64,000 nt of DNA from Thermoleophilaceae bacterium (lineage in GTDB: Bacteria; Actinomycetota; Thermoleophilia; Solirubrobacterales; Thermoleophilaceae). Below are positions 23,021-60,400 of the stretch, one piece after another. A program made the translations under genes and the position numbers. The stretch lies in assembly GCA_034664165.1 (NCBI GenBank), contig JAXDIE010000023.1, forward strand, positions 2,777 through 66,776, read 5' to 3'. Numbering within the stretch: position 1 is the first letter of the stretch; the number at the start of each line of letters is the position of its first letter. Under the pieces are notes generated by a model. That model had not been told where the DNA came from. It did no database searches and saw only the letters and a program-made list of their open reading frames with translations.

Positions 23021-24358
23021 TCAGGGCAGTGCCGGGACTTCTTGGAAGTTCTGCTTGGTCGACGGGTTGTCGATGCTGCCCGGCTCCGGGTAGGAGTTGT
23101 GCTCCTGCTTGGTGGTCAGCTTGGACACCAGGCCAACATCAACCAGCGCGTTGTAGGCGTCGATGATCTCCTGCTTGCTCGACAGGAAGTCAGGGCCGGG
23201 CGGGGCGGCAACTGCGTGCACGCGGCCAAGCTGGCCCAGCGCGTCCTTGTAGTCGTTGATCGAGCCGGTGTTGGCGAAGAAGGCGCCGAACTCCTGGTCG
23301 TAATCCTTGAGGTAGGCCACGGCGGGGATCGCCTGGCGGAGAAGCGCGTCAAGTGAGCCGATGGCCGGGTCGAGGTCCTGGGTGAATGGCCGCAGGGCGG
23401 CGAACATCGGGTTGGCCTCGTTGATGAAATGCGGAAGCTCGTCGAAGATCTGGTTGGCGTCGTGCGCCGCTGGCTTGAGATCCCGGATGGCCGGCGAGAG
23501 GTCGGTCGAAGCAACGCGAAGGTCATGGATGACAGGCGTTGCGTTGTCGGAGAGGTTCCCGAGCTTGCCGAGCGTGGTCCTTGCCGTGCGCAAGGTCGGC
23601 GGCAACTCCTGGAAGGTGGAGGCCAGCTGATCGTTCTCGGCCGACGCCGCCTCCGCGGCGTTCTTGGCCTGGACCGCGAGGGTCCTGACCTGCGCGGTGC
23701 GATCCGCGAACGCCTGGAAGGTGCTGGCGGTGTCGTCGATTGCGTGGGCCAGCTGGTCACGCTGGCCGCGGAAGACCTGCATCAGGCGGCCGCCGTCCGC
23801 AACGGTCGGCTCCATCGCGGCGAAGAGCTGGTTGAGGTCCTCGCCGTGGCCGTTGAAGGCCGTGCCGAGGCTCTGGAGGTCCTGGGTCACGTGACGGCGG
23901 GTGGGCGCGTGGAAGGTCGAGAGGATCTCCTCCAGCGCGGTGACCTCCTGGGCGTGGCTGGCCATGAGGGTGCCGTTGTCGGGCACGGCTCCCGCCTTGG
24001 GCGTGCCGGGGTCGAGATCGATGTAGGTCTCGCCGACCAGCGTCTTGATCCGGGGAGCCACGGTGGCGTCCTTGTAGATAGGCGCGACGCTGCCGTCCTC
24101 GAGCTCGAAGGTCACGAGCCCGGCCCCGCTGGGGGTCTGCCCGCGCCGGGTGACGCGGCCGACCTTGACGCCGCCGATGCGGACGTCGGAGTTCTCCACC
24201 AGGTTGAGCGGCTCGGGCAGGACCACGCTGACGTGGTACGGCTCGCTGAGGCGGAAGCGACCGCCCGCCTGCGTGTAGAGGAAGGCGAAGATCGCCAGGC
24301 ACACGGCCGAGAACAGAACGATCACGCCCACCTTCATCTTTGCGTTCTCGGCCCTCAC
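23021..24358 (-). CDS. mceF: MCE-family substrate-binding protein (sixth of six)
   Basis: N-terminal TM (VGVIVLFSAVCLAIFAFL), MCE domain with VRIGGVKVGRV, long helical region. The GTG at 24358 overlaps the mceE stop (GTGA). Alternative ATG at 24337. Confidence 0.85.
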   Translation of the reverse strand: MRAENAKMKVGVIVLFSAVCLAIFAFLYTQAGGRFRLSEPYHVSVVLPEPLNLVENSDVRIGGVKVGRVTRRGQTPSGAGLVTFELEDGSVAPIYKDATVAPRIKTLVGETYIDLDPGTPKAGAVPDNGTLMASHAQEVTALEEILSTFHAPTRRHVTQDLQSLGTAFNGHGEDLNQLFAAMEPTVADGGRLMQVFRGQRDQLAHAIDDTASTFQAFADRTAQVRTLAVQAKNAAEAASAENDQLASTFQELPPTLRTARTTLGKLGNLSDNATPVIHDLRVASTDLSPAIRDLKPAAHDANQIFDELPHFINEANPMFAALRPFTQDLDPAIGSLDALLRQAIPAVAYLKDYDQEFGAFFANTGSINDYKDALGQLGRVHAVAAPPGPDFLSSKQEIIDAYNALVDVGLVSKLTTKQEHNSYPEPGSIDNPSTKQNFQEVPALP

Positions 24359-25620
24359 TTGCCGTCCTCCCCCTGTGCGTAGCACGGCGTCACGTGCTTG
24401 AGGCCCGGGTCCGCGATCGACTCGAAGCCCGTGCTCCCCTGTGTGAGCGCGCCGCGCGGGATGGCGCCGTACGCATCGCTGAACTTGAGCACCGAGAGCG
24501 TGTCCTGGAAGAACTTGCTGAGCGAGGTGTCGAGGCACGGCATGGCCGTCTGCGTGATCCCGTCGAAGCGCGGGGCCTGCGGACGCAGCTGGGTGAAGGC
24601 CGACTCGAGCGAGTCGGTCGTCGGCTTCAGCTCCTGGGAGAGCGGCTGGAGCTGGTTGAAGGCGGGCTGCAGGTCGCGGAGCGCCGGCGTGGCGTCATCC
24701 GAGAACTGCTTGAGGCCGTTCAGCCCGTTGTCAAGCTCGTGAGCGGCCGGCACCAGCTGGCGCAGGGCCGGATCCATCTCGTCCTCCGCCGCGCGGAGGC
24801 TCGTGAAGGAATCCCGCAGGGCGGTCATGGTCGGCGGGAACTGACGGACCGTCTCCGACAGCGGCGAGCTGGCCGAGGAAAGGGATGTCAGGGTCGAGTT
24901 GCCTGCCGTGATCAGCGTGTTCAGCTGGGCGTCGCGCTCCGCAAGCAGGTCGGCCACGTTGCCGAAGTTGGTGATCACGCGCTTGAGCTCGGTCTGACGA
25001 TCCGCCATGACCGTTGTCACGTCCTGCGCCGCGTGGAGGAAGGGCGCGACCTCGGCGAAGGCCGCCTTGAGGTCTTGGCCGTTGCCCGCCAGCCCCGTCG
25101 CAAGCTCGTGCAGCAGCGTATTGAGGTGTGTACGCGTGTCCTCATCGAAGGTGTCGAGAACCCGGGAGATGTCGACCGGCGTCTCGGTCTGCTTCGAGGA
25201 GATGACCTGGGACGAGCCGGACGGGATGGCGCCGGCAGCGGGCGTGCCGCGATCGACCACAGTCACATACATGTCCTGCAGAGGGGTCTGGGGCCGGATG
25301 CGCAGCTGGGCATCCTTGTAGAGCGGGCCGTACCGGGGCACGAGCGAAAGGGTCGCGACGCCCTCGCCGTCGACCGTCCGAAGCGCCTGGACGAAGCCGA
25401 CCTTGACGCCGGCTATGCGAACCGGGTGCTGCCCTGCGAAGACGCCCTTGACGGAGTCGAATGCAACGTTGACGGTGTAGCGCTTCTCGAAGGGCTTCAG
25501 GAACGTCAGGTTGTTGAAGATCAGGACCAGGGTGATGATGGCCGCCATCAGAGCGAACACCAGCCACAGGAAGGGATTGCGCGCGCGCTCGACTTCCAGC
25601 TTCAGACGGGCGGTGTTCAC
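24355..25620 (-). CDS. mceE: MCE-family substrate-binding protein
   Basis: 421 aa. N-terminal TM, MCE domain VRIAGVKVGFV. 4-nt overlaps at both ends. Confidence 0.88.
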   Translation of the reverse strand: MNTARLKLEVERARNPFLWLVFALMAAIITLVLIFNNLTFLKPFEKRYTVNVAFDSVKGVFAGQHPVRIAGVKVGFVQALRTVDGEGVATLSLVPRYGPLYKDAQLRIRPQTPLQDMYVTVVDRGTPAAGAIPSGSSQVISSKQTETPVDISRVLDTFDEDTRTHLNTLLHELATGLAGNGQDLKAAFAEVAPFLHAAQDVTTVMADRQTELKRVITNFGNVADLLAERDAQLNTLITAGNSTLTSLSSASSPLSETVRQFPPTMTALRDSFTSLRAAEDEMDPALRQLVPAAHELDNGLNGLKQFSDDATPALRDLQPAFNQLQPLSQELKPTTDSLESAFTQLRPQAPRFDGITQTAMPCLDTSLSKFFQDTLSVLKFSDAYGAIPRGALTQGSTGFESIADPGLKHVTPCYAQGEDGK

Positions 25621-27011
25621 TTGTCATCAACTCCGATCGAAGCGCCTGCGGAGCTGGTTCCGGCCTGGGCCGTGGATGGGGCACCGAGCGTCTGGTTGAA
25701 CACACTGAAGAGGCGGTCGCACTTGATCTTGTCGTCCGCGGTCGGGTCCACCAGGAAGGTGTTGCAGGGCGAGCCGCCGCCGACGAGGTCCTCGCCGAGG
25801 CCGAGGGTGAAGTTGGCGGAGTGCGCGACTTCGTTGAAGTGCGCGCCCAGCGAGCCGACCGCGGAGAAGAACGGTCCGATGGCCTCGTAGTCCTTGAGGC
25901 CTGTGTCGGCGTCGTACTGCTGGAGGTGGGGCAGGATGCTCTCGTTGGTGCGGTCCACTGTGGGCTGCAGGCGGTTCATGAGCGGCGTGCCATCGTCGGC
26001 CGCAGCCGCCAGCTGGCGCACGGCCGGGTCGAGGTCGTCGAAGGTCTTGTCCGCGCGCTCGAGCATCGGGTCGAGCTCGTTGAAGGTGTTCTGTGCCTCC
26101 CTGGAGGCCTCGTCGAGCCTGCGCGCACCCGGACGGAGGTCGCGGGCCAGCGGATCGAGGTCGTCGAGCGTGCCGCGCAGCCGCGTCATGGTGACCTGGA
26201 CCGAGTCCATGGTCTCGGGGCCATCCTGCACGGCCTGCGAGAGGGCCGCGCCCTGGGATCCGACTGCCTGGAACGTGGTCGCGCCGTTGTCGAGAAGCCC
26301 TGCGAGGTCTGTCTCGTTGCGGCCGAGTGCACGCATGGCCGAGCCGGTCTTCGTCACGAGCCTGCCGAGGTCACCCTGACTCTGGCCCTGAAGGGCGTCG
26401 AGGCCCGGAGCGATCTCCTGGGAGGCGGGGCCGAGCGCGTCGAAGGTCTGATGGGCGGCGCGTCCGGCGAAGGCGGTGCCGGCCTCCTTGATGAAGCCAC
26501 GCATACCCGCGCGCCCGTACTCGTCGAGGGGCTGCAGTGCCTGGTCGACGTCGGTCGCGTAGCGCGTGCGGGTCTCGGGAATGATCTTGCCATCGGCCAG
26601 TGCGGGCGCGCTGGCAGATCCGGGCATGAGGTCCATCTCGAAGAAGAAGCCGAGCAGCGTCCGTCCGTAGACCGTGGCACGCGCGTCGTCCTTCATCTGG
26701 ATCGTCGGGTCGGTGATCCGGAAGCTCACGAGAGCGCCATCACCGTCCGGCTGGCGCTCGACCTTCTCGACGCGCCCGACCTCGACACCGCCGACGCGCA
26801 CCTGCGTGGTGCCCGGGCGCAGGTAGTCCGCGCGGCTGAATGCAGCGGTGTAGACCTTGCCGCCCTTCGGGATGAACGGGATCGATGCAGAGAACATCGC
26901 GTAGAGCACGAGGGCCAGGATCCCGAGCGAGATCGCCCCATTACGGACCCGGTTGGGCCGGTGCTGCCCGGGGACGAGCTCGAAGCGCTTGAAGAAGCCA
27001 CCGTCAGCCAT
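25617..27011 (-). CDS. mceD: MCE-family substrate-binding protein
   Basis: 464 aa. N-terminal TM, MCE domain VRVGGVEVGRV. Confidence 0.88.
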   Translation of the reverse strand: MADGGFFKRFELVPGQHRPNRVRNGAISLGILALVLYAMFSASIPFIPKGGKVYTAAFSRADYLRPGTTQVRVGGVEVGRVEKVERQPDGDGALVSFRITDPTIQMKDDARATVYGRTLLGFFFEMDLMPGSASAPALADGKIIPETRTRYATDVDQALQPLDEYGRAGMRGFIKEAGTAFAGRAAHQTFDALGPASQEIAPGLDALQGQSQGDLGRLVTKTGSAMRALGRNETDLAGLLDNGATTFQAVGSQGAALSQAVQDGPETMDSVQVTMTRLRGTLDDLDPLARDLRPGARRLDEASREAQNTFNELDPMLERADKTFDDLDPAVRQLAAAADDGTPLMNRLQPTVDRTNESILPHLQQYDADTGLKDYEAIGPFFSAVGSLGAHFNEVAHSANFTLGLGEDLVGGGSPCNTFLVDPTADDKIKCDRLFSVFNQTLGAPSTAQAGTSSAGASIGVDDK

Positions 27012-28300
27012 CAGCGGATCGGCTCCTTTCCGACCTGGCAGGGCTTGGGGTAGGCGTTCGAGAAGGTCGGGGTGACGCCCTTCTTGCCGCCGCCGATGGT
27101 CTCCTCGGAGGCGATGACCTCGAAGCGGATCATCTGCATCGAGCCGTCGGTGAAGCCGAGCATGCTCTCCCAGTTGTTGAACATGCGGTCGTAGTCGCAG
27201 CCGCGAGGCGCGAGGACGTTGAGGATCGGCAGCGTGTTCTTGAGGCCGTCCTCGATGTTCGGCAGCACGGGGTTCACCGTGTCCAGGAGGCCCAGCGTCG
27301 GGTTGACGGCGTCGCCGACCAGGTCCAGGGTCCTGTTGAGGTTGCGCAGGCTGGGCTGGGAATCGTCGAGGAGCTTCGAGGTCTCATTGAGCGCGCCGGG
27401 CGCGGCCTGGAGCATGGGCCGGGAGTTGCGTGCAAGCAGGCCGGTCTCGGTCACCAGCGGATCGGTGCGCGCCAGCTCGACACGGGCTGTCTGCAGCGTC
27501 GGCGGGGCCTCCTCGAGGGTGTCCTGGACGCCCTGCTCCTGCTCCTTGAAGGGCTTGAGCGCGTCGGCTTCCGGCGCGAAGCCCTGGCCGATGTCGTCCC
27601 GCACCGGGTCTGCCGCGTTGGCGGCTCCCTGCGAGGAGCTGATGAAGCGCGCGAGGGCGCCATCGAGCGCATTGACCGAGCCGACTACCTGGTCGGTGTC
27701 CTGCAGGAACTCCGGCGCCGCGGCCAGCGTCTTGTTGCCGTCGAAGCCGCGATCGGCAAACCCTTCGCCGAACTCCTTCAGGAAGATCTGGGTCTGGGCG
27801 CGGGTCTTCTTGTCCAGCGACGAGAGCGCGCCGTCGATTGTCACCGTGGCCTTGGTCTGACTGGCAGGGATGGTCGCGCCCTGGGGCAGCCGGGTTCCCT
27901 CCGTGCCCTTGGTGAGCTCGATGTAGCGGACGCCGATCGGGCTTCGCGGGCGGATGCGCAGCGTGGTGTCCGAGAGCAGCGGGCCCTGGTCGGCTGCCAG
28001 CTGAAGCTCGACCACTGCGTTGCCATCGTGCACCGAGGTGTCGGAGACCTGGCCGATGAGCTCCGCGCCCGACCGCACCTGGTAGGTGTCGGTGATGTTG
28101 TCGGCCTCTTCGAACTCCGCGTTTATGTAGTAGTAGGAGCGGCCCGGGATGCTGTTGGCCGCGTTGAAGCCGACGTAGAGCAGGAGCAGCGCGAAGAAGA
28201 TGCCGAAGGCGCCCGTGATGAGCAGGAACGGGCGGCTCTGCGGCTTACCGACCTCGCGGCCGGCGCCGGGAAGGCGCGATCTGAGCGAGGTTATGTTCAT
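27011..28300 (-). CDS. mceC: MCE-family substrate-binding protein
   Basis: 429 aa. N-terminal TM (FLLITGAFGIFFALLLLYV) followed by an MCE domain. Confidence 0.88.
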   Translation of the reverse strand: MNITSLRSRLPGAGREVGKPQSRPFLLITGAFGIFFALLLLYVGFNAANSIPGRSYYYINAEFEEADNITDTYQVRSGAELIGQVSDTSVHDGNAVVELQLAADQGPLLSDTTLRIRPRSPIGVRYIELTKGTEGTRLPQGATIPASQTKATVTIDGALSSLDKKTRAQTQIFLKEFGEGFADRGFDGNKTLAAAPEFLQDTDQVVGSVNALDGALARFISSSQGAANAADPVRDDIGQGFAPEADALKPFKEQEQGVQDTLEEAPPTLQTARVELARTDPLVTETGLLARNSRPMLQAAPGALNETSKLLDDSQPSLRNLNRTLDLVGDAVNPTLGLLDTVNPVLPNIEDGLKNTLPILNVLAPRGCDYDRMFNNWESMLGFTDGSMQMIRFEVIASEETIGGGKKGVTPTFSNAYPKPCQVGKEPIR

Positions 28301-29940
28301 GGCGCGAACAGGTAGTCGAGGAGCCGGAGGGCATCGTTGTGCTGGTTCGAGGAGGAGCCTGAGCTCTGGCCTCCGCCGAGGAGCTTGTCGACCGCACCCT
28401 TGAGCCGTGCCTGCGGGGCGTCGAGCAGCTCCTTGAGCTTGTCGGTGCCGAGCTTGGCCAAGCCCTTGACGTCATCCACGGTCTTGCCGAGGCGGTCCTT
28501 GACCTCGCCGAGCAGCTTGTCCTTCAGGTCGTTGACCTTCTTGACGGTGTCGTCGACCAGGCCCTTGGTCTTGTCGACGACGTCCTTGACCTTGTCGCCG
28601 ACGGCCTTGACGGCGTCGCCGTCGGCCGTGTCGAAGCTCTTGTCGGGGCCGTCATAGGCGTTGACGCTCTTCGAGGCGGTTGAGGGCTTCTTGTTGGCCG
28701 GCTTGGCGGAGGCCGTCTTCGCCCCGTGATCGAGGCTGACGTCGCCCGGCGAGAGGTAGCGCTCCAGCGCGTGGCTGAAGGTGTTCTTGCTGACGTACGC
28801 GCGGATGCCGAAGAGATGGCTCAGGCCGTCGGAGGTACCGATGGCTCCGGCCCAGTTGTTCATCACGCCCATGAGCTTGGCGAATGAGCCCGAGCCCTGG
28901 CTGCCGTTGCCGTCCATCTGGTCGATGATCGGATCGGCGATGTCGACGAAGTGGCGCAGACGGTTCAGCGTCGGGCGGAGGCGCTCGACGACCGGGGTGC
29001 CCTCGCGGCCCAGCCGCACCAGATCGGGTGAAATCGCGCTGGCGGTGCGCAGGGTGTTCTGCGCGGCGTCCGCGAAGTCGGGCAGCTGCTCCAGCGTGTC
29101 ATGAAGCGGATCCGCCGTCCTGCGGAGGTCGGCCGCGGCCGGCTTGAGCTGGTTGGAGGTTGTGGTGAGCTTGCCGAGCGTGGTCTGGAGCTGGGTGAGG
29201 GCGGTTGGCGCCTCGCGGAAGGTGTTGCCGAGCTCCTCGCGGCGGCTTGCTGTGACCCGGAGGGCGTCGGCCGCGCTGTCGACAAGGTTGCCGAGGTCTC
29301 CCCGGTTACCCGAGATCGATGCCACGACGCGGTCACCCTGATCGATGAGCATCTTCATCTTGTCCGTCTCCGAGCGGGCCTCGTTGGTCAGGTCCGCGAT
29401 CTGGTCGATGGCCGGGGGAAGCTCCTCGAGCAGGCCGTTGAAATCCGAGCCGCGCCCGGCGAGCATGATGCCCGCCTCGTTGACGAGGATCCTCAGGCGC
29501 GCGCGGACGTCGGGGGCCAGGATGTTCAAGGCATCGTCGATCTCGACCGGGGTCGAGGTGCGCGCCAGCGGGATAGACGTGCCCGAGGGCAGCGGCTTGC
29601 TGAGGTCGCCTACCTCGAGGTCCATGTACTTCTCGCCGAGGAGGTTCACCGGGCGTGCGGCGGCGGTGGCGCCCTCGCCGATGTTGCCGCTGCCCGGGTC
29701 AAGCAGCATGGTGACCAGAGCGGTGTCGTCCTTGCTCAGCTCGAGGTGGGTGATGATGCCCGCGTCAACGCCGCCGATCTTGACGTTCGAGTTCGGCACC
29801 AGGCCGGACGCGTCGGTGAGCTCGGCCTTGACCACGTAGGTGCCGTTCGGCGTCTCGAACACCGCGTGCTTGAAGATGAGCACGACGGGGATCAGCAGCA
29901 CGATGGCGATGATCGGCGCGAGTATGCCCTTCGTGTTCAC
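28297..29940 (-). CDS. mceB: MCE-family substrate-binding protein with K/D-rich 11-mer repeat tail
   Basis: 547 aa. N-terminal TM, MCE domain VKIGGVDAGII. The C-terminal region has about seven 11-residue repeats. Confidence 0.88.
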   Translation of the reverse strand: MNTKGILAPIIAIVLLIPVVLIFKHAVFETPNGTYVVKAELTDASGLVPNSNVKIGGVDAGIITHLELSKDDTALVTMLLDPGSGNIGEGATAAARPVNLLGEKYMDLEVGDLSKPLPSGTSIPLARTSTPVEIDDALNILAPDVRARLRILVNEAGIMLAGRGSDFNGLLEELPPAIDQIADLTNEARSETDKMKMLIDQGDRVVASISGNRGDLGNLVDSAADALRVTASRREELGNTFREAPTALTQLQTTLGKLTTTSNQLKPAAADLRRTADPLHDTLEQLPDFADAAQNTLRTASAISPDLVRLGREGTPVVERLRPTLNRLRHFVDIADPIIDQMDGNGSQGSGSFAKLMGVMNNWAGAIGTSDGLSHLFGIRAYVSKNTFSHALERYLSPGDVSLDHGAKTASAKPANKKPSTASKSVNAYDGPDKSFDTADGDAVKAVGDKVKDVVDKTKGLVDDTVKKVNDLKDKLLGEVKDRLGKTVDDVKGLAKLGTDKLKELLDAPQARLKGAVDKLLGGGQSSGSSSNQHNDALRLLDYLFAP

Positions 29941-31295
29941 TTGGCCGCGTCCCTTGCGTCCTCGGGGTCCTTGGACGGGTCAAGCGAGTCCGGCGTGTAG
30001 CCGCACTTCTCGATGAACTGCGGGTTGCCGGCGTCGACACCGGGTACGCGCGGGTAGGCGTAGTGGTCACCCGACAGGTCAGTGAAGGCCTTGGTCGTGA
30101 AGCCCGGCGGGTAGAGGTTGTTCATGATCGCGCCGGAGCTGCCTCGGACGCGGGCGTAGTGGGAGACGCTGTCGTAGTTCTGGGAGAAGCTGGCCCAGTT
30201 GGACAGGAAGCCGGCGAACTCGGGGGCGTAGGGGCGGAAGCAGCCGATCATCGGTGCCAGGTTCTTGAAGAGCGGGTCGATGTCCCTCGAGAACGGGGCG
30301 CCGCGACGCAGCATGGCGGTGATGTCCGGAGCCGAGTTGGTGATGGTCCGGACTGTGGACAGCGCGTTGGGCGCGGTGTGGCGGAGCTGCGAGAGCGCCG
30401 GGCGCATCTGGGCGGCCAGCGGGCGCAGCTGCTGCGCGCCGGGCTTGAGGTCGTTCATGAGGCCGTTCAGCTCATTGATGCTGCTGTCGAAGCGGCTGAG
30501 TGTGGTGCGGCTCTGGCGGAGGGTCTCCGGGAACTCCGCGATGTCGGTCCGGAGGTCGGCCGAGTTGCTGCCGAAGGCGTCAAACGTCTGGGCCGCGCCG
30601 GCAACGACGTTGCGGATCGCGTCGCTGTTGTTGGCCAGGATGCTGGCTGTGTTGGAGGTGTCGCTGACCAGGCGCTGCAGCGAGTACTCGTCCTGGGCCA
30701 GCTCGTGGAAGACGCCACCGGCTGCCTCGAAGGCCTCCGGGGATTCCTCGAGGCCGGATGCGAGCCCCTTCTCGTGGCCCACCACTGTGCCGCCGGTGTT
30801 GGCGAGCATCGTCTGGAAGCTCTCGCGCGTATCGGCGTTGAAGGTGTTGAAGAGGTCGTCGAACTCGACGGCCGAGACGGTGTTGTCGGTCGGGATGATC
30901 CCGCCGTCGGCGATCGCCGGTGCGCTGTCCGGGCCCGGATCCAGCTCGATGAAGCGGGTGCCGTTGCCGACCGTGGTTCCCCAGCGGGCCACCGCGCGGG
31001 TGCCCTGGTGGAGCGGCCAGACGCGCTCGTCGCTGATGCCGATCTCCACGACGGAGACGCCGTCGACGTAGCTGATCTTGCCGACCTTGCCGGCGTCGAT
31101 CCCGTCAACGCGTACGTCGAGGCCAGGGAAGAGCTGGACGGCCGAGGTGAAGCCGGCCTTGATCGTGTGCGCCTGGGTGCGCGTGCCGATGACCCACCAG
31201 ACGAAGAGCACGGCCGCGATCGCGATGATCACAAGCCATGGCCTGGATATCAGCCAGTTCCCCGCCCCCTTGCTGCGCCCCCCTACTGCCCCCAC
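29937..31295 (-). CDS. mceA: MCE-family substrate-binding protein (first of six)
   Basis: 452 aa. N-terminal TM (WLVIIAIAAVLFVWWVI), MCE domain VRVDGIDAGKVGKI. Confidence 0.88.
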   Translation of the reverse strand: MGAVGGRSKGAGNWLISRPWLVIIAIAAVLFVWWVIGTRTQAHTIKAGFTSAVQLFPGLDVRVDGIDAGKVGKISYVDGVSVVEIGISDERVWPLHQGTRAVARWGTTVGNGTRFIELDPGPDSAPAIADGGIIPTDNTVSAVEFDDLFNTFNADTRESFQTMLANTGGTVVGHEKGLASGLEESPEAFEAAGGVFHELAQDEYSLQRLVSDTSNTASILANNSDAIRNVVAGAAQTFDAFGSNSADLRTDIAEFPETLRQSRTTLSRFDSSINELNGLMNDLKPGAQQLRPLAAQMRPALSQLRHTAPNALSTVRTITNSAPDITAMLRRGAPFSRDIDPLFKNLAPMIGCFRPYAPEFAGFLSNWASFSQNYDSVSHYARVRGSSGAIMNNLYPPGFTTKAFTDLSGDHYAYPRVPGVDAGNPQFIEKCGYTPDSLDPSKDPEDARDAAK

Positions 31296-32177: not shown

Positions 32178-32178
32178 G

Positions 32179-34056: not shown

Positions 34057-34068
34057 GAGCGGCGGAGG

Positions 34069-35426: not shown

Positions 35427-35487
35427 GGGGGCGATCCTAGGCCGATCCGGAGCTTCCGGGTCGAAGTACGTTTAGATTCCCGAGCCC

Positions 35488-36393: not shown

Positions 36394-36404
36394 GCGGCTA
36401 GCGG

Positions 36405-37310
36405 TCACTCCATCCCCAGCGGGCCCTGGACGTCGCGGTTCAGGAACTGGCGGACGAACGGGTTGCTGGAGTTGAACATGGACTTGGCATCCCCGGCCTG
36501 AACGATCTGCCCCTTCCAGAGGACGGCGATGTACTCGCCGATCTGACGTGCGGACGCGATGTCGTGGGTGATCACGATGTAGGTGCCGCCGTTCTCCTCG
36601 TGCATCTGCTTGATCAGGTCGCAGAGGAGCGCGGTGCGCACCGGGTCGAGGCCGGAGTCCGGCTCGTCGAACATGACGATCTCGGGACCGAGCACCAACG
36701 CGCGGGCGAAGCCGGCGCGCTTGCGCATTCCGCCCGAGAGCTCCGACGGTGAGCGGTCGCCGGCCTCCTGCAGGCCGACGTCGGCCAGCCGGGAGTTGAC
36801 GATCTCCGCGATCTGCTCCTCGCGGTAGTCGGTGTGCTGGCGAAGCGGGAAGGCCACGTTGTCGTAGAGGGACATCGAGCCGAAGAGCGCGCCGTCCTGG
36901 AAGAGGATGCCGAACTTGCGGCGGACGTCCAGGAGACGGGACAGGGTCATCTTCGGGACCGACTCACCGTGCACGACGATGTCGCCGGAGTCGGGGAAGA
37001 GCAGGCCGATCAGGTGCTTGATGAGCACGCTCTTGCCCGTGCCCGACGGGCCGAGGATGATCGAGATCATGCCCTCGGGGATGCCGACGGTCAGGCCATT
37101 GAGCACCTCGTTGCGGCCGAACTTCTTGTAGACGTCCTCGACCCGGATCGACCAGAACTCCCCGGGGACCTTCTCCTCCAGCTCGAGCGCGCCCTCGTGG
37201 ACGACCTCGCCGGATTCGCTCTTGAACCCCACCGCCTGGTCGAGGAGCGCCGCGGCCTCGGGGCTGGGCCCCGGGACGGGAACGTCAGTGGGGAAGGGAT
37301 CGTCTGCCAT
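36405..37310 (-). CDS. mceG: Mce/Mla-type ABC transporter ATPase (Mkl/MceG)
   Basis: 301 aa. Walker A GPSGTGKS, Q-loop FQDGALF, signature LSGGMRKRAGFARAL, Walker B IVMFDEPDSGLDP, H-loop ITHD. Confidence 0.88.
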   Translation of the reverse strand: MADDPFPTDVPVPGPSPEAAALLDQAVGFKSESGEVVHEGALELEEKVPGEFWSIRVEDVYKKFGRNEVLNGLTVGIPEGMISIILGPSGTGKSVLIKHLIGLLFPDSGDIVVHGESVPKMTLSRLLDVRRKFGILFQDGALFGSMSLYDNVAFPLRQHTDYREEQIAEIVNSRLADVGLQEAGDRSPSELSGGMRKRAGFARALVLGPEIVMFDEPDSGLDPVRTALLCDLIKQMHEENGGTYIVITHDIASARQIGEYIAVLWKGQIVQAGDAKSMFNSSNPFVRQFLNRDVQGPLGME

Positions 37311-37337
37311 GTAGAGGTCCTCTCTGTCTTTCCCTGG

Positions 37338-37811
37338 TCAGGAAGGGCGCTTGGGAAGCAGTTCGCGGAAATTGCCGAAGTGCCCGAGCGGGCGGAGCAT
37401 CGGGACGATCCGCAGGATCTTCCGGACGGGCCCCTCGTACTCCAGGATGCGGTTGGCGATGGAGAGGCCGAGGAATGTGTGGCCGGTCCAGATGTCGACG
37501 TTGTCCTGTGCCGTGCCCCAGAGGAGCACCTCGGCCGAAGGATCGGCCTCGCGGCGGAACTCGATCGGGAAGCGGTCGAAGTAGATCGTGAAGGAGCGAT
37601 CCGCATCCGTGATGTGCGCGGTCCAGATGGTCTCCGCCACGGTGAGCCGGCGCGAGAGCCGCTCGTCCTGGGCGCACGCCGCAGCGAAGAACCCCTCGAG
37701 GACGTCCATGAGCTTTTCGGCCTGCGCCGTGGCTTCCGCGGTCACAGGGGTGCCCGCCCGGCCCGAGCCGGTTGCGTCGCTCACATCAACTCCAACTTCA
37801 CCCGTCGACAT
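37338..37811 (-). CDS. SCP2 sterol/lipid-carrier-like protein (paralog of 16064-16465)
   Basis: 157 aa. Shares ...W.G......L.......G.....GPV.KIL+.VP...PL with the other SCP2-like ORF. Lies 27 nt upstream of mceG on the same strand. Confidence 0.6.
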   Translation of the reverse strand: MSTGEVGVDVSDATGSGRAGTPVTAEATAQAEKLMDVLEGFFAAACAQDERLSRRLTVAETIWTAHITDADRSFTIYFDRFPIEFRREADPSAEVLLWGTAQDNVDIWTGHTFLGLSIANRILEYEGPVRKILRIVPMLRPLGHFGNFRELLPKRPS

Positions 37812-38051
37812 GCCATCCCCACTCTCCCCACATGGATTGCAACGACCCCCGTGTTTCCAGCATGCTATCCGCGGTGGGCGGCGGGAAACTGGCAGGCCCC
37901 CACAAAGCCCGGCGTCACCCTATGTGATCGAGCTACAAGGCGACAGGCCCCGGGGCGCCCATACCCCCCGCGGGGGATTCATATCTCCCAAGGGGCAAGG
38001 CTGACCCCCGTGCCGGCCCCCGATGCTCCCGCGGGCAATAGGGTGCGCGCA

Positions 38052-39125
38052 ATGCGACCACTACTCATCCTCGCCCTGGCCACCGCAGCCTTCACCGGCG
38101 CCGCCGACGTGGCCCAAGCCAAGAACATCGTCGACCGCAAGGTCAGCTTCAGCGTCACCAACAGTGACCAGACGGGCGGCCCCGGCGCCACCGACAACAA
38201 GCGCTACACGATCGCCGGTCGCATGATCGGCCCACGAAGCGAGCTGCGGAAGGCGCGGGCCGGGCGGCCGGCGGAGACGCCCGCCGCAACCATCTACCTG
38301 CACGGGCTCGGCTACACCAGCCTCTTCTACCACTTCACCCAGGTGCCCCAGTACGACTTCGTCACGAAGATGGCCAAGCAGGGCCACCTGTCGGTGATCA
38401 TCGACCGCATCGGCTACGGCAAGAGCGGGAAGCCCGACGGGATGGACGACTCATACGCCGCCCAGGCCACGGTCCTCCACCAGATCATCCAGAGCCTGAG
38501 GGACGGCGAGTACGAGATGGCGGGCAACGCCAGGCGGCCGGCGGTCTTCAAGACCATCGGCGTGGCCGCGCACTCCGCGGCGGTGTTCATCGCGCAGCTC
38601 GAGGACTACTCGTTCGACGACGCTGATGCCCTGGTTCTCATGAGCCTCGGCGACCTCTTCCCGAGCCCGCTCGCATTGACCGCCTTCGCCGCGACGTCGG
38701 GTGTCTGCTTCTCCGGGGGAGATCTCTCCGACGGCGACACCGGATCCCCGGGTTACGCCTACTTTGGCCAGACCGACGCCGACTTCCAGGCAGCCCACCT
38801 CTACAACATCGATCCTCGGGTCGCGGCCATCATCACCGCCCACCGCGTCCGCGACCCCTGCGGCGAGAGCGGGACGGCGCTGACCTCGATCCTCAGCGAC
38901 GCCACCCACGACCAGCGAATCCGGGTTCCCGTCCTTCTGCTCAACGGCAAGAACGATGCGCTGTTCCCGCCGCCCGCCGGCAACATCCAAAAGGTGCTCT
39001 TCCAGGGCGTGCGCGACCTGACCCAGGTGGAGGTGCCCGACACCGGACATGCCCTCCTGCTCGGCCGCACCGCCCCGATCGTGCGCGAGAAGATCGACAA
39101 GTGGCTGAGCGAACGCGGGCTCTGA
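38052..39125 (+). CDS. secreted alpha/beta-hydrolase
   Basis: 357 aa from MRPLLILALATAAFTGAADVAQA (signal peptide). Oxyanion-like YLHGLG. Nucleophile elbow variant GVAAHSAAV. C-terminal DTGHALL. The track ORF (from 36834) is an antisense run-on. Confidence 0.75.
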   Translation: MRPLLILALATAAFTGAADVAQAKNIVDRKVSFSVTNSDQTGGPGATDNKRYTIAGRMIGPRSELRKARAGRPAETPAATIYLHGLGYTSLFYHFTQVPQYDFVTKMAKQGHLSVIIDRIGYGKSGKPDGMDDSYAAQATVLHQIIQSLRDGEYEMAGNARRPAVFKTIGVAAHSAAVFIAQLEDYSFDDADALVLMSLGDLFPSPLALTAFAATSGVCFSGGDLSDGDTGSPGYAYFGQTDADFQAAHLYNIDPRVAAIITAHRVRDPCGESGTALTSILSDATHDQRIRVPVLLLNGKNDALFPPPAGNIQKVLFQGVRDLTQVEVPDTGHALLLGRTAPIVREKIDKWLSERGL

Positions 39126-39269
39126 ATCGGCGGCCGTTTCCCCCGTTGGGGTGATACTTGCCCCTCCAGCGGATGATGAAGGGGCCTGGATCATGAGGAA
39201 AGCTGGGACCACAGGACTAAGGTGCTCCGCAGAGACAGTCTCAACGCGGGCCAAAGAGGAGGAACGGGA

Positions 39270-39818
39270 ATGCAGGTAGCGACTCACACGTCGGGGGCAG
39301 AGAACAACGCAGGTCCCGTGCTGCGCGGCCTGGGCGCCGCTGGTGGCGTGATGATCGCCGTGGGCGTCGGAATGCTGCTCATGCCGTTCGTCGGCCCGCT
39401 GGTCGGGATTCCCTTCGACGGCGCGCAGGCCTTCGTGCTCGACCGCAACCGCTTCCTGCTCCACGTCTTCCCCGGCGCCGTAGGCCTGCTCACCGGGCTG
39501 GCTCTGCTCCACGCGCAGCGCATGCGCACGCGTAAGGGCCTGGCCTACCCCGAATGGCTCAAGCCCGCCATCGCCATAGCGGTGATCGTCGGGATCTGGA
39601 ACGGCGTGGGCCCCTGGGTCCTCCAGAGCGTCCTTCCCGCATCCTCCGGCACCTCGCTGATGTTCACCAACATCCAGGGCTTCGGCGGGATGAGCGGGAC
39701 ACAGCAGTTCCTGCTCGAGATGACCTGCCACTGGCTCCCCGGCGTGCTCGCCCTGGGGGCGGCGTGGGTCGCCTACGTGCTGGTCCGCCGTCTCCCTGGC
39801 AACGTCGCGGCCTCCTAG
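39270..39818 (+). CDS. four-TM membrane protein, unknown family
   Basis: ATG at 39270 follows AGAGGAGGA. 182 aa with four hydrophobic helices. Confidence 0.55.
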   Translation: MQVATHTSGAENNAGPVLRGLGAAGGVMIAVGVGMLLMPFVGPLVGIPFDGAQAFVLDRNRFLLHVFPGAVGLLTGLALLHAQRMRTRKGLAYPEWLKPAIAIAVIVGIWNGVGPWVLQSVLPASSGTSLMFTNIQGFGGMSGTQQFLLEMTCHWLPGVLALGAAWVAYVLVRRLPGNVAAS

Positions 39819-39832
39819 TCCGGACCAACGTC

Positions 39833-39868
39833 ACACAGGTCATAGCTACGCCTGTGTAGTATTTGTTG
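39833..39868 (+). terminator. terminator-like hairpin overlapping a -10-like TAGTAT
   Basis: acacagg-tcatagctacg-cctgtgt followed by the T-rich agtatttgttg. TAGTAT (39857-39862) ends 7 nt before the ATG at 39870. Confidence 0.4.
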
Positions 39869-39869
39869 A

Positions 39870-40826
39870 ATGTCGTTCAACGCACGGACCGAACCGGCCC
39901 TGGAGGTCGACCCTCTCGGGCTTGACGGTGTGATCACCGAGCTCGGCGGGCGACGGATCCTCGATGGCGTAACCCTTCCGGTCGAGGCCGGGAAGATCAC
40001 TGCGCTCGTCGGGCCTTCCGGGGTCGGCAAGACGCTCTGCGTCCGCCACCTCACCGGGCTGCTGGCGCCAACGGCCGGCCGCGTGATGATGGACGGCCGC
40101 GACATGACGACACTGACCCGCCAGGAGCTCCGCGAGCACCGCCGCCAGATGGGTGTCCTGTTCCAGGGCTCTTCGGCGCAGGGGGCCGGCCTGTTCGGCT
40201 CCCTCAGCGTCCTCGACAACCTCCGCTTCGTCCTGCGGAGCCAGACCGATCTTTCCGACGAGGAGATCATGGAGCGCGCGCGGATCCAGGTGGAGCAGGT
40301 CGGGCTCGCCCAGTTCGCCGACGCTTTTCCGCAAACCCTCTCCACGGGCATGGCCCGCCGCGCCGCCCTGGCGCGCGCGCTGGTCACCGAGCCCCGGATG
40401 CTCCTGCTGGACGACCTGGACAGCGGCATCGACGACATCCGCCTGAGCCTCCTCGCCGACCTGGTCAGGCAGGCCCAGGCCGATACCGGCATGACGGTGC
40501 TTGTGACAACCCATGACCCCGAGCTCGTGGACGAGCTGGCCGACACCGTGGCCGTTCTCCGCAGCGGCCGGATCCGTTCCATCGGCCCGCCCCACGAGGT
40601 GCTGGCCAAAGGCGGGCGCGGCGGCGGCACCTTCCTGGCCGGCGACCGCACGGCCGGGCTCGAGATGGCCCCGGAGGCCGTCGGCCCCGCCACCCTGACG
40701 GAGGTCAACCACCAGCCCGTCGGCGTCGAGGGCCGTCAGCTGCCGGCCGCCCTGCTGGGCTTCTTCATCATGGTCGCCATCGCGGCCACCTGGTTCTACG
40801 TGGCCGCGAACCACACGCCCGGCTGA
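39870..40826 (+). CDS. MlaF/MceG-like ABC ATPase with C-terminal TM anchor and degenerate Walker B/signature
   Basis: 318 aa. Walker A GPSGVGKT. Signature LSTGMARRAALARAL. Walker B LLLDDLDSG (Asp replaces the catalytic Glu). H-loop TTHD. C-terminal LPAALLGFFIMVAIAATWFYVAA. Confidence 0.8.
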   Translation: MSFNARTEPALEVDPLGLDGVITELGGRRILDGVTLPVEAGKITALVGPSGVGKTLCVRHLTGLLAPTAGRVMMDGRDMTTLTRQELREHRRQMGVLFQGSSAQGAGLFGSLSVLDNLRFVLRSQTDLSDEEIMERARIQVEQVGLAQFADAFPQTLSTGMARRAALARALVTEPRMLLLDDLDSGIDDIRLSLLADLVRQAQADTGMTVLVTTHDPELVDELADTVAVLRSGRIRSIGPPHEVLAKGGRGGGTFLAGDRTAGLEMAPEAVGPATLTEVNHQPVGVEGRQLPAALLGFFIMVAIAATWFYVAANHTPG

Positions 40827-40864
40827 ACGAAGGAGCCGGCAGGCTCGCGGAGAAAGGGTGCCGA

Positions 40865-41563
40865 ATGGCCTTTTCCGCGGAGTTGATCGACGTCCACAAG
40901 CGGGCCGGCGCGAGCCGGGCGCTGACAGACGTGAACATCGGCGTGCCCTCTGGCGACGTGACCGTCCTGCATGGCGGAGCGCGTTCGGGCAAGACGGCGG
41001 TGGTGCGCCTGATCTCCGGCCTGGACCGGGCCGACCACGGAGCCGTGCTCGTGGGCGGCAAGGCCATGTCGGGCGCATCCGGGCGGGCCCTCCGGCGCCT
41101 GCAGCGCAGCATGGCCGTGATGCTCCAGGGCGGCCCGTCCGACAGCTGCGGGCTCTTCGACTCCGCCTCGATCTTCGAGAACCTTGCCTTCCCGCTTCGC
41201 GAGTCCGGCCATGTGGCCGCCCGCCGCATCGACGCCCTGGCCCTCGACTATCTCGAGCGGGCGGGTCTTGCCCAGGTGGCTTCCGAGAAGCCGGCCGTCC
41301 TGTCGCCCGCGATGCGCAAGCGGGTGGCGCTGGTGCGGGCGTTGGCCATGCACGCGCCGCTCGTGGTGCTCGACGAGCCCGACGGCCACGCGGACCCGGC
41401 AGAGCTCGAGACGGTCTGCCGTCTGATCGAGCAGGAGCGCGAGGAGCGCTGCAACACCTATCTGGTCACGACGCGCAACTCGGCGCTGGCCGCACGGCTC
41501 GGGCACCACGTGGTGAGCCTCGACGACGGCTGCGTGGTCGAGACCTCAGCCGTCTACGCCTGA
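40865..41563 (+). CDS. MlaF/MceG-like ABC ATPase, degenerate signature and H-loop
   Basis: 232 aa. Walker A GGARSGKT. Signature LSPAMRKRVALVRAL. Walker B VVLDEPDG. H-loop position reads TTRN. Confidence 0.75.
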   Translation: MAFSAELIDVHKRAGASRALTDVNIGVPSGDVTVLHGGARSGKTAVVRLISGLDRADHGAVLVGGKAMSGASGRALRRLQRSMAVMLQGGPSDSCGLFDSASIFENLAFPLRESGHVAARRIDALALDYLERAGLAQVASEKPAVLSPAMRKRVALVRALAMHAPLVVLDEPDGHADPAELETVCRLIEQEREERCNTYLVTTRNSALAARLGHHVVSLDDGCVVETSAVYA

Positions 41564-41567
41564 GCGC

Positions 41568-42257
41568 TCACGTCCCGAGCGTCATCGTGTTGAGGGCGAA
41601 GCCGCCGTCGATGGCGATCTGCTGCCCGGTGACCTGGGCGGACTCGTCCGAGGCCAGATAGGCCACCAGCCCGGCCACCTCCTCGACCTCCGCCATCCGC
41701 CCCGAGGGCAGCGCCTCGAGCACCCGGTCCAGCACACCCTGCGGCATGGCCCGGACCTGCTCGGTGGCGATCATCCCCGGGAGCACTGCATTGGCGGTGA
41801 TCCCCTTGCCCGCGTTCTCGGCGGCGATCGTCTTCATCATCCCGAGGAGCCCCGCCTTTGACGCGCTGTAGGCGACCTGTCCCGGGAGGCCGCCGGTGGC
41901 GGCCCCGCTCGAGATCACGACGATCCGCCCGTGGCCGCGCTCGCGCATGCCTGCCAGGCAGGCCTGGACCACGCGGAAGGCGCCGGTGAGATTGACGTCG
42001 ATGTCGCGCTGCCACTGCTCAGGCGTCATCTGGTGGGCCGGCGCGATCGTCGTGGTGATCGCCGCGTTGGACACGACGACATCGATGTCGTCGAGCGGCG
42101 GCAGCTCGCCGGCTGCGACGTCGACCTGGAGGTCGCAGCCCTCGGCGCGATCGAGCGTGACCACATCCATGCCATCTGCACGCAGGCGATCGGCAATGGC
42201 TGCGCCGATACCGCGCGCGGCACCCGTCACCAGCGCGCGGCGCGGCGCGTCGGTCAA
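41568..42257 (-). CDS. short-chain dehydrogenase/reductase
   Basis: TGAARGIG, NAAI, YSASKAG. I prefer the TTG at 42257, which overlaps the GMC stop (TTGA). The track ORF extends to 42416. Confidence 0.8.
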   Translation of the reverse strand: MTDAPRRALVTGAARGIGAAIADRLRADGMDVVTLDRAEGCDLQVDVAAGELPPLDDIDVVVSNAAITTTIAPAHQMTPEQWQRDIDVNLTGAFRVVQACLAGMRERGHGRIVVISSGAATGGLPGQVAYSASKAGLLGMMKTIAAENAGKGITANAVLPGMIATEQVRAMPQGVLDRVLEALPSGRMAEVEEVAGLVAYLASDESAQVTGQQIAIDGGFALNTMTLGT

Positions 42258-43798
42258 GCCTGCGCGATGAGGTCGGCGGCCCGCTCCGCGATCATGATCG
42301 TGGGCGCATTGGTGTTGCCGCGGGTGACCGTGGGCATCACCGAGGCGTCGACCACGCGCAGGCCCTCGATACCGAGCACCTTGAGGTCGTTGTCCACCAC
42401 CTCGCCGATCGCGCACGTACTGGTGGGGTGGTACACGGACTGGGTGTAGGCGCGGGCGAAGGCCATCAGGTCCTCGTCGGAGTCCGAGTCCGGGGCGCGG
42501 AACGGCCCGGTGATCACGTCGGTCAGCGCGGGCTGCTCCGCCATCTCCATCGCCATCCGCAGGCCGGCGATGATGCTCTGGCGGTCATCCTCGGTGGCGT
42601 AGAAGTTGCTCACGATCCTCGGCTTGGAGGAAGGCAGCGGGGTCCGCAGGGTCACGCTGCCGCGGCTCGTGGGCTTGAGCACGCACGGGCCGAAGGCGAA
42701 GCCGTGCTCGGTGGCCACACCCAGGCCCTCGTCGTAATAGAGCACCGGCGCCATGTGGAACTGCACGTCGGGCGCGTCGAGTCCCGCACGCGTGCGCATG
42801 AAGCCCCCGGCTTCGGCCAGGTTCGAGGTCAACGGGCCGCGGCCCTCGCTCTCGAGCATCGCCACGTTCTCCGGGGACATCGCGGTCATCAGCGACTCGA
42901 CGTCGGTCTTGTAGTTGATCAGTGCCATGGGGTGGTCCTGCAGGTTCTCCCCGACTGGCAGGTCCTGGAGCACCTCGATCATCAGGGCCTCGAGTCCCGC
43001 CGCTGGGCCGATGCCCGACAGCATCAGCAGCTGGGGCGAGTTGTACGCGCCGGCAGAGACGATCACCTCGCGCTCGGCGCGGATCTCCTCGAGCTGGCCG
43101 TTTCGGGTGAGTTCGATGCCGACCGCTCGCGAGCCCTCGAACAGGATTCGCGTGACCAGGCCGCCGGTCACGACCTCGAGGTTGGGACGATCCGCAGCCG
43201 GGTGGAGGTAGGCCACCGAGGTGCCGCAGCGCATCCCGTTCCTCTGGGTTGTCTGGTAGCGGCCGACGCCCTCCTGGCGGGCGCCGTTGAAGTCCGGGTT
43301 GGCCTCATGGCCGAGGGCCTTGGCGGCCTCGACCCACGCGTCGGCCAGCGGGTTCATCGACCTGCCCTCGGACACACCGAGAGGCCCGCCGGTTCCGTGG
43401 AACTGGTCCTCGCCGCGCTCGTTGTCCTCGGCCTTCTTGAAGTACGGGAGCACGTCGTCGTAGCCCCAGCCTGCGGCGCCGCCCTCGGACCAGCCGTTGT
43501 AGTCGGCCTGGTTGCCGCGGATGTACACCATCGCGTTGAGGTTGCTCGTGCCGCCGAGGACCTTGCCCCGGGGCAGGTATGTCCGCCGGTTGTCCAGGCC
43601 CGGCTCGGGCTCGCTGGTCAAATCCCAGTCAAGGTCGCTCTTCTGCAGCGCCGCAAAGGCCGCCGGGATGTGCAACTCCTGCGCGGTGTCCGGCGGGCCG
43701 GCCTCGATGAGCGTGACGCTCACGTCGGAGTTCTCCGACAGCCGGGCGGCAAGGACGCAACCGGCCGAGCCGGCACCAACGATCACGTAGTCAGGCAT
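42254..43798 (-). CDS. GMC-family FAD oxidoreductase (choline/alcohol dehydrogenase-like)
   Basis: 514 aa from MPDYVIVGAGSAGCVLAARLSE. GMC signatures: GGTSNLNAMVY; C-terminal HPTSTCAIG...VVDASVMP. The track ORF extends to 44128. Confidence 0.9.
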   Translation of the reverse strand: MPDYVIVGAGSAGCVLAARLSENSDVSVTLIEAGPPDTAQELHIPAAFAALQKSDLDWDLTSEPEPGLDNRRTYLPRGKVLGGTSNLNAMVYIRGNQADYNGWSEGGAAGWGYDDVLPYFKKAEDNERGEDQFHGTGGPLGVSEGRSMNPLADAWVEAAKALGHEANPDFNGARQEGVGRYQTTQRNGMRCGTSVAYLHPAADRPNLEVVTGGLVTRILFEGSRAVGIELTRNGQLEEIRAEREVIVSAGAYNSPQLLMLSGIGPAAGLEALMIEVLQDLPVGENLQDHPMALINYKTDVESLMTAMSPENVAMLESEGRGPLTSNLAEAGGFMRTRAGLDAPDVQFHMAPVLYYDEGLGVATEHGFAFGPCVLKPTSRGSVTLRTPLPSSKPRIVSNFYATEDDRQSIIAGLRMAMEMAEQPALTDVITGPFRAPDSDSDEDLMAFARAYTQSVYHPTSTCAIGEVVDNDLKVLGIEGLRVVDASVMPTVTRGNTNAPTIMIAERAADLIAQA

Positions 43799-43823
43799 CG
43801 GCTCTCTCCTAGCTTCGGCGGGG

Positions 43824-56298: not shown

Positions 56299-56360
56299 GT
56301 TGCAGGGACCCCGGATGTGTGGTAGGACTGCCTTTCGCCCACCCTTTGGAGGAGTGACCC

Positions 56361-58001: not shown

Positions 58002-58010
58002 GAGGCACCG

Positions 58011-60392: not shown

Positions 60393-60400
60393 CAGGAGAG

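Follow-up and report, generated by a model that had tools for sequence, protein, structure and literature searches.

Actinomycetota, mycobacteria included, import lipids and sterols chiefly through Mce transporters, and regulation of the ATPase that these transporters share is only starting to be understood (Mce1N, LucA/LucB). We analyzed a stretch of 64,000 nucleotides, hereafter the window, from a Thermoleophilaceae bacterium (Actinomycetota, Thermoleophilia; GenBank assembly GCA_034664165.1, contig JAXDIE010000023.1, positions 2,777 to 66,776 of the forward strand). Two adjacent genes of the window encode ATP-binding cassette (ABC) ATPases, denoted P1 and P2, that are related to this shared ATPase, MceG, but are degenerate in their catalytic motifs.

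Among the described proteins, the lineage closest to P1 and P2 in the phylogenetic tree is MceG/Mkl (Rv0655, MSMEG_1366; Mce1 complex, PDB 8FED), the shared ATPase of actinobacterial Mce importers, and the best PDB fold match for both is MlaF of Escherichia coli, Acinetobacter baumannii, and Pseudomonas aeruginosa (6XBD, 7D06, and 7CH8). The Walker B Glu is the catalytic base of ABC ATPases, and the H-loop His and the signature motif of the partner complete each site; non-hydrolytic sites are typically marked by Asp instead of Glu in Walker B, an H-loop without its His, and degeneracy of the partner's signature (PMC7756269, PMC7544095). Substitutions of the same kinds as those in P1 and P2 are found in heterodimeric ABC exporters (TM287/288, TAP1/2, CFTR site 1, and ABCB11; PMC7756269, PMC7544095). 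These exporters, however, retain one consensus site that drives transport, and their nucleotide-binding domains (NBDs) form one chain with complete transmembrane domains; the only membrane segment of P1 is its tail helix, and P2 has none.

Other described systems are comparable by function or description. Mce1N (MSMEG_0959/Rv0513) is a membrane-anchored negative regulator that blocks docking of MceG on YrbE1B (PMC10517005); it could serve as a functional precedent for control of an importer at the MceG docking site, a purely mechanistic likeness, being neither an NBD nor related in sequence to P1 or P2. No degenerate, tail-anchored, or paired MceG clade was found in literature searches on degenerate or paralogous forms of MceG/MlaF, only nfa20200 of Nocardia farcinica, an orphan Mkl paralog whose gene lies apart from those of ABC membrane components (Casali and Riley 2007, PMC1810536), which is set beside P1 and P2 by this description only and is not reported as degenerate, tail-anchored, or paired. 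PhnK and PhnL (7Z15) are two different stand-alone NBDs that work as a dimer on the C-P lyase without a permease; they belong to another NBD subfamily than P1 and P2, lack a membrane anchor, and retain catalytic function.

Family assignment and catalytic motifs of P1 and P2

P1 (39870..40826, 318 amino acids) and P2 (40865..41563, 232 amino acids) are encoded on the forward strand with a gap of 38 nt; the first-pass annotation of the window, made from the sequence alone, had the coordinates and frames of both, and of the membrane protein gene upstream, right. An in-frame TGA directly precedes the ATG of P1 at 39870, GGAGAAAGGG is found upstream of the ATG of P2 at 40865, and a convergent SDR gene at 41568 sets the 3' limit of the unit. 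Both open reading frames (ORFs) are intact, and the G+C content at third codon positions (GC3) of P1 is 0.91, a coding-type value, the G+C content of the window being ~68%.

Both proteins score far above the 25-bit cut-off of the ABC_tran model (PF00005) and so belong to the ABC superfamily (P1, 7.6e-28, 98.3 bits; P2, 1.2e-17, 65.2 bits). Their AlphaFold2 models (predicted local distance difference test scores, pLDDT, of 88.4 for P1 and 93.5 for P2) matched many ABC NBDs in Foldseek with a probability of 1.0, MlaF and MceG being the top PDB matches; the query-normalized template modeling score to MceG is 0.73 for P1 and 0.89 for P2. Among NCBIfam models, MlaF ranks first for P1 (152 bits) and second for P2 (101 bits), far below the equivalog cut-off of 441 bits (NF008809), a stringent test for actinobacterial proteins because the canonical MceG encoded in the window (213 bits) also falls below it. 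Sequence context shared with MceG is also seen near the Q-loop and where the C-terminal extension begins. Thus, sequence, fold, and phylogeny all place P1 and P2 in the MlaF/MceG subfamily, as had been proposed in the first-pass annotation. They are clearly derived from MceG, yet they depart from functional MceG and MlaF in the catalytic motifs and the equivalog score. The pair does not share an operon with yrbE or mce genes, and no MlaB, MlaE, or MlaD is encoded in its operon.

The motif positions were fixed by HMMER alignment to solved structures of MlaF (6xbd, 7d06) and MceG (8fed) and rechecked in an alignment of 42 sequences; all the motifs called in the first-pass annotation stayed in place in both, with no shift that would restore canonical residues. 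P1 contains the Walker A motif GPSGVGKT (nucleotides 40011-40034), the Q-loop Gln99 (40164-40166), the signature LSTGM (residues 157-161; 40338-40352), the Walker B motif MLLLD181 directly followed by Asp182 in place of the catalytic Glu (40398-40415), the D-loop SGID, and the H-loop His215 (40512-40514). The respective elements of P2 are the Walker A motif GGARSGKT (40973-40996), which is still compatible with GxxxxGKT, Gln88 (41126-41128), LSPAM (41300-41314), VVLD170 followed by Glu171 (VVLDE, 41360-41377), GHAD at the D-loop, and Arg204 at the position of the switch His (41474-41476). In an intact NBD of this kind, the Walker A and B motifs, including the catalytic Glu, and the H-loop His are expected to be present, and the LSGGQ-type signature to deviate at no more than one position (PMC1810536 and general knowledge of ABC proteins); P1 deviates in Asp182 and LSTGM, and P2 in LSPAM, Arg204, and GHAD. 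In addition, both P1 and P2 carry, directly after the Q-loop Gln, a five-residue insertion that is lacking in MceG (in P1, at about nucleotides 40170-40190) and that the first-pass annotation had missed.

The two proteins also differ from MceG at the C-terminus. P1 retains the motif FLxGD..GL, with which the C-terminal extension of MlaF and MceG starts, but beyond it, instead of the soluble extension of ~120 amino acids, there is a low-confidence linker (residues 250-266, pLDDT below 50) and a predicted transmembrane helix (about nucleotides 40737-40811). This tail, already noticed as hydrophobic and transmembrane-like in the first-pass annotation, has a Kyte-Doolittle hydrophobicity of 2.16 over 19 residues (about residues 290-314) and is modeled by AlphaFold2 as a helix at residues 293-314 (pLDDT of about 90-97). 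Such tails are kept in the close P1 relatives P0002-P0007 and also in P0185, P0187, and P0189, and are replaced by two helices in a group typified by P0010, so that P1 is predicted to be a tail-anchored membrane protein with a C-terminal hydrophobic helix conserved in orthologs. P2 ends right after the NBD core and lacks the extension, which MceG needs for its function (PMC9882608); this absence, too, had escaped the first-pass annotation.

A clade defined by an insertion after the Q-loop

The motif states were tabulated for 42 proteins, among them 31 members of the degenerate clade, including 10 P2-like proteins. The insertion after the Q-loop (QG-SSAQG-AGLF versus QDG-ALF) is present in 31/31 members of this clade, that is, in all P1-like and all P2-like proteins and in a third degenerate group (P0048 and P0057), and in none of the canonical MceG and MlaF proteins of the table. 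In a neighbor-joining tree, the proteins with the insertion are monophyletic (94/100 bootstraps) and form a sister group to the canonical MceG of the window, with the P2-like proteins as a nested clade (100/100 bootstraps). By these comparisons, P1 and P2 belong to a clade that arose from MceG and has not been described before.

In the table, all P1-like and most P2-like proteins have another residue in place of the catalytic Glu. This residue is mostly Asp, but Gly or Ser in the P1-like proteins that end in two tail helices (P0010, P0011, P0017, and P0022). P1-like proteins retain the H-loop His and usually have the signature LS[AGST]GM; LSTGM is present in five of the six full-length close relatives of P1, the sixth (P0007) having LSGGM, and both degenerate P1 motifs, LSTGM and LDDLDSG, are conserved across 59-88% identity. 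The P2-like proteins are more extensively altered. The H-loop His is missing in all 10 (TTRN, TTRS, ATTN, TTRD, TARD, or TTAD), the signatures are scrambled (LSPAM, LELPM, LDLPT, LSPAE, LTQSE, LADGQ, and others), and the subclade has lost the D-loop and the C-terminal extension; some members have lost the Q-loop Gln (P0125, P0126, and the protein of L119) and one, P0188, the Walker A Lys. Glu171 of P2 is unusual in this company: the orthologs with a readable Walker B motif have Asp, so that the absence of the catalytic base from both partners is the conserved state, and the degeneracy of the two proteins is not complementary in the sense proposed in the first-pass annotation.

Homolog searches and a profile search run exhaustively over 1.84 billion representatives show that close relatives are rare and that all come from metagenome assemblies, except for the record of the window itself and two proteins derived from metagenome-assembled genomes (MAGs); a close homolog of P2 (56% identity) is found in a Thermoleophilaceae MAG. 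No close P1 relative was detected in 185,579 species-representative genomes, where the best matches, at 39% identity, were canonical MlaF-like genes. A scan of metagenome contigs with an alignment of P1 and its closest relatives returned ordinary MlaF/MceG loci because the search patterns are generic (GPSGVGK, GMxRRxALA), and L031 was the sole clade member recovered. So far, the clade is known from metagenomes only and is confined to uncultured Thermoleophilia-like lineages.

Several members depart from the P1 and P2 patterns. In the third subgroup (P0048, L115 10001-10939, and P0057), the Q-loop Gln is replaced by Gly (AMLGG), the signature is LPAHA, Walker B is LDEIDVG, and the H-loop is TTHN or TTHT; P0048 is a solitary gene in a 2-Mb contig, flanked by genes of the GAF-GerE and TetR types. 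L001 (301-2034) and L031 encode P1-like proteins of the P0010 type, with two C-terminal transmembrane helices and Walker B motifs reading LDG or LDS. The P1-like gene of L001 starts 6 nt after a gene for a DUF4386 membrane protein, an arrangement that points to another membrane partner there. High scores with the P2 profile were also obtained for P0179-P0184, tandem double-NBD proteins of ~550 amino acids with canonical MlaF-like motifs in both halves; thus, fused pairs of MlaF-like NBDs exist.

Conservation of the gene pair and selection

The adjacency of P1 and P2 is conserved in four lineages, namely, the window, its collinear relative L002, the contig of P0005, and L119, with P1 identities of 59-88%; in L119, P1 is 59% identical and the P2-like gene begins 46 nt after it. 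Two collinear relatives share the order of two ferritin-like genes, an unknown gene, mceG, an unknown gene, an ORF of hydrolase size, the membrane protein gene, P1, and P2. In the window, the pair lies 2.5 kb from the canonical mceG and 6.8 kb from a full yrbEAB-mceA-F operon, both on the opposite strand.

The ratio of nonsynonymous to synonymous substitution rates (dN/dS) was obtained from a single pairwise comparison with L002 (83% nucleotide identity), a sequence that contains indel errors, and equals 0.118 for P1, 0.109 for P2, 0.122 for the canonical MceG, and 0.099 for the neighboring SDR gene. Because their dN/dS of about 0.11 equals that of the canonical MceG, P1 and P2 are under purifying selection and are maintained rather than decaying; the motif degeneracies described in the first-pass annotation are real and kept by selection. 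L002 (ENA contig_52479) is collinear with positions 33776-43835 of the window at ~83% identity and shows 153 gaps in 6.6 kb. Truncated or frameshifted calls, such as P0003 and P0122, arise from indels of this type, which probably reflect errors of long-read assembly, not pseudogenes; the dN/dS value of a GMC oxidoreductase is likewise an artifact of these indels.

A possible regulator of the neighboring Mce importer

In line with the first-pass annotation, P1 and P2 probably work as an ATP-binding switch or regulator, not as a motor. Building on what is directly observed, that is, the fold, the motif states, the purifying selection, the structure of the clade, the conserved adjacency, and the proximity to mce genes, we tentatively propose, as the best supported of the readings weighed but possible rather than probable, that P1 and P2 are a membrane-tethered, non-hydrolyzing regulator of the neighboring Mce importer. 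The C-terminal helix of P1 would anchor it in the membrane, and P2 would be soluble. Because the Walker A Lys/Thr and the Walker B Asp are kept, both are predicted to bind ATP(-Mg), and the adjacency conserved in four lineages suggests a heterodimer, in which the two NBDs would be arranged head-to-tail. By motif logic, one composite site (Walker A, Asp182, and His215 of P1 with LSPAM of P2) would lack the Glu and face a degenerate signature, and the other (Walker A and Arg204 of P2 with LSTGM of P1) would lack the His and, in the orthologs, also the Glu. The point made in the first-pass annotation that each site would be short of at least one catalytic element thus holds at this level; both sites of the dimer would be degenerate, unlike the heterodimeric exporters with their one consensus site, and neither would hydrolyze ATP efficiently. 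Rather than fuel, ATP would be a lasting glue or switch, and the dimer, or each protein together with the canonical MceG, might dock on YrbEA/B or compete for them, modulating the importer instead of driving it.

Several observations weigh against this proposal. Eight members of the clade are solitary and not located beside mce genes (L001, L027, L030, L111, L114, L115, L116/L117, and the P0015 contig). No second NBD or permease gene is found beside the P2-like genes of L027-29, L030, L111, and L114 or beside the P1-like genes of L001, L031, L116, L117, and the P0015 contig, and the same holds for P0048 (L115); several of these solitary genes adjoin GAF-LuxR or TetR regulators or catabolic genes. 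Because members from other lineages are solitary, neither the pairing nor the link to Mce is a general property of the clade. No mce genes lie within the contigs seen of the other clade members, and the pair in the window itself is outside the yrbEAB-mceA-F operon, 6.8 kb from it and 2.5 kb from the canonical mceG; with mce proximity limited to close, collinear relatives, it is weak evidence of function. The Q-loop insertion sits on the surface that faces the coupling helices of the permease and could abolish docking on YrbE instead of tuning it. Finally, some NBDs with a Glu to Asp replacement retain residual activity.

Four other explanations have to be weighed against the regulator. Decay of functionless mceG duplicates would account for the lost catalytic residues and for the fast divergence of P2 from canonical members of the family (34% identity), but pseudogenes are not expected to show a dN/dS equal to that of the canonical MceG, intact ORFs with coding-type GC3, LSTGM and LDDLDSG motifs conserved across the close relatives, and confident AlphaFold2 models; we regard this possibility as barely credible and, given the dN/dS values, reject it. 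Quite improbable, in our estimate, is an ordinary but slower ATPase pair that energizes transport, either by the neighboring Mce system under particular conditions or with the membrane protein encoded upstream as an unconventional partner. Walker A and the Walker B Asp are indeed kept in both proteins, and the Q-loop Gln and H-loop His in P1; the membrane protein gene is syntenic in close relatives and under purifying selection, and the P1-like gene with two tail helices in L001 closely follows a DUF4386 gene. Such a motor is at odds with the lack of essential catalytic residues in both composite sites and with the progressive loss in P2 orthologs of the D-loop and Q-loop Gln and, at the extreme, of the Walker A Lys (P0125/6, P0188), and the membrane protein resembles neither MlaE, DUF4386, nor any solved permease and appears to belong to a separate transcription unit. 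We also consider it improbable that P1, and perhaps P2, each pairs with the canonical MceG into an asymmetric motor on YrbEA/YrbEB with one near-consensus and one degenerate site. Walker A, Walker B, and His of MceG with LSTGM of P1 would make a nearly canonical site, P1 keeps the D-loop, the H-loop, and the start of the extension, and binding of MceG by YrbE1A and YrbE1B is asymmetric (PMC10517005), but the probable co-transcription of P1 with P2 in four lineages would be left unexplained, P2 has no C-terminal extension, on which MceG depends for its function in Mycobacterium smegmatis (PMC9882608), and the Q-loop insertion may hinder docking.

The remaining alternative is that P1 and P2 are permease-independent nucleotide switches with an NBD fold, similar in this respect to PhnK/PhnL, with transcription regulators or lipid and terpene catabolic enzymes as partners and with the tail of P1 serving for localization only. 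We consider it unlikely, but it is a serious rival because the Q-loop insertion, which remodels the permease-facing surface, could retune or abolish docking. It fits the solitary clade members that have no permease nearby and repeatedly adjoin regulators or catabolic genes: a GAF-GerE gene is directly upstream in L030 and L115, TetR genes are beside P0048 and P0185, and other neighbors in the clade include AtuA and AtuA_ferredoxin, an acyl-CoA dehydrogenase, and an F420H2-dependent reductase. In the window, a GAF-LuxR gene lies 4 kb away, and PhnK/PhnL (7z15), which by analogy would be the precedent for a role of this kind, are among the fold matches. Yet the clade is sister to canonical MceG, and wherever a contig with the pair is long, the pair lies beside mceG, although yrbE and mce genes are seen in the window only; these genomes are rich in GAF-LuxR and TetR genes, such that adjacency in two or three contigs may be due to chance, and no partner was found. 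A broader scenario, which we hold to be somewhat doubtful, would span this role and that of an Mce regulator: an MceG-derived clade of pseudo-ATPases converted to nucleotide-sensing switches, in which tail-anchored P1 and soluble P2, with hardly any motif left, would make up an ATP-glued dimer. This dimer would either join the Mce importer as a subunit with a dominant-negative or gating role or relay its state to regulators of the GAF-LuxR type. If so, such switches would be an NBD-based counterpart of regulation by Mce1N, described for no Mce or Mla system.

A family of conserved MceG paralogs with crippled catalysis, one of them membrane-tethered, would represent a new layer of Mce control or a new use of ABC NBDs as a switch, and NBD dimers with both sites degenerate would provide a natural set for separating ATP binding from hydrolysis. 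The practical weight is limited by the confinement of the family to uncultured Thermoleophilia-like lineages and by how far the proposal reaches beyond sequence.

The membrane protein gene and the putative promoter of the pair

Upstream of P1, the window contains a gene (39270..39818, forward strand) for a membrane protein of 182 amino acids with about four hydrophobic segments, preceded by GAGGAGG before its ATG at 39270. No Pfam match was found even at E ≤ 10, no PDB sequence match in a library that includes the Mce1 complexes with LucB, and no similarity to MlaE or to the DUF4386 protein that precedes the P1-like gene of L001, in agreement with the first-pass annotation, in which this protein was considered unlike MlaE/YrbE. 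It belongs to a lineage-restricted, unannotated family, and close relatives have its gene in synteny with the pair (dN/dS of 0.134 versus L002); any functional link to the pair is putative, and its identification as a known ATPase partner was rejected on the lack of Pfam, DUF4386, and PDB similarity.

The first-pass annotation had also described a terminator-like hairpin between this gene and the ATPases. A hairpin is indeed present (39833..39857, forward strand; 8-bp stem, 9-nt loop), but its folding does not stand out from that of shuffled sequences (z = -0.55), it is not called in a terminator scan, and its left arm is not conserved in L002. It is probably not a terminator, and that reading was rejected. 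On the 3' side, its arm shares nucleotides with a conserved, putative extended -10 element. This element, read as an extended -10 promoter (39853..39869, forward strand; TGTG-TAGTAT), ends 7 nt before the P1 ATG and is identical in L002; in L119, it reads TGTG-TAACCT and is located 6 nt before the ATG. The start codon of P1 is supported by the conserved N-terminus MSFN. Because no Shine-Dalgarno sequence is present at this start and the putative promoter ends 7 nt before it, the P1-P2 mRNA is probably leaderless. P1 and P2 are probably co-transcribed from this promoter of their own, given which the membrane protein gene appears to be a separate transcription unit.

The mce locus and other genes of the window

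The canonical MceG/Mkl ATPase of the window (36405..37310, reverse strand) has intact motifs (GPSGTGKS, LSGGM, MFDEPDSG, and ITHD). The MlaE-family permeases are encoded by yrbEA (32179-33051, reverse strand) and yrbEB (31305-32270, reverse strand), with PF02405 E-values of 3.6e-55 and 4e-50, respectively, followed by six mce genes, mceA-F (23021..31295, reverse strand), with MlaD and Mce4_CUP1 domains. The description of P1 and P2 as an orphan pair without a permease is thus correct for their own operon but not for the window, which holds yrbEA, yrbEB, mceA-F, and a canonical mceG, genes that the first-pass annotation had not connected with the pair; no further ABC permease was found in the rest of the window, which consists of lipid and hydrocarbon catabolism genes and regulators. 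The mce operon, which is complete and of the actinobacterial type, is followed by an MMPL-family gene (20631-23012, reverse strand) and a gene for a DUF4394+DUF4386 protein (18973-20634, reverse strand). Whereas mkl usually lies immediately upstream of yrbEA in other actinomycetes outside the mycobacteria (PMC1810536), two tandem ferritin-like genes (PF13668) and an unannotated ORF of 301 amino acids (34069-35426, reverse strand, and 35488-36393, forward strand) lie between mceG and yrbEA in the window. An ORF of 157 amino acids (37338-37811, reverse strand), 27 nt upstream of mceG and in the same position in two relatives, has no Pfam or PDB match and evolves faster than its neighbors (dN/dS of 0.46); it may encode an MceG accessory protein.

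The GAF-LuxR (GerE) regulator gene 4 kb downstream of P2 (45453..46610, reverse strand) and a second GAF-GerE (LuxR-type) gene (17301-18971, forward strand) flank the mce region. On unrelated contigs, GAF-GerE genes (L030 3439-4566 and L115 8190-9443) are directly upstream of solitary NBD genes of the clade, an adjacency that may reflect either a regulatory link or the mere abundance of these genes. Farther along the window, a soluble di-iron monooxygenase cluster (56358-61321, forward strand) comprises two Phenol_Hydrox subunits, a Fer2/FAD/NAD reductase, and a fatty-acid-desaturase-like gene, and is adjoined by a gene for a PAS-GAF-GAF-SpoIIE phosphatase (61318-63678, reverse strand); the composition of this region suggests a hydrocarbon or lipid oxidation island.

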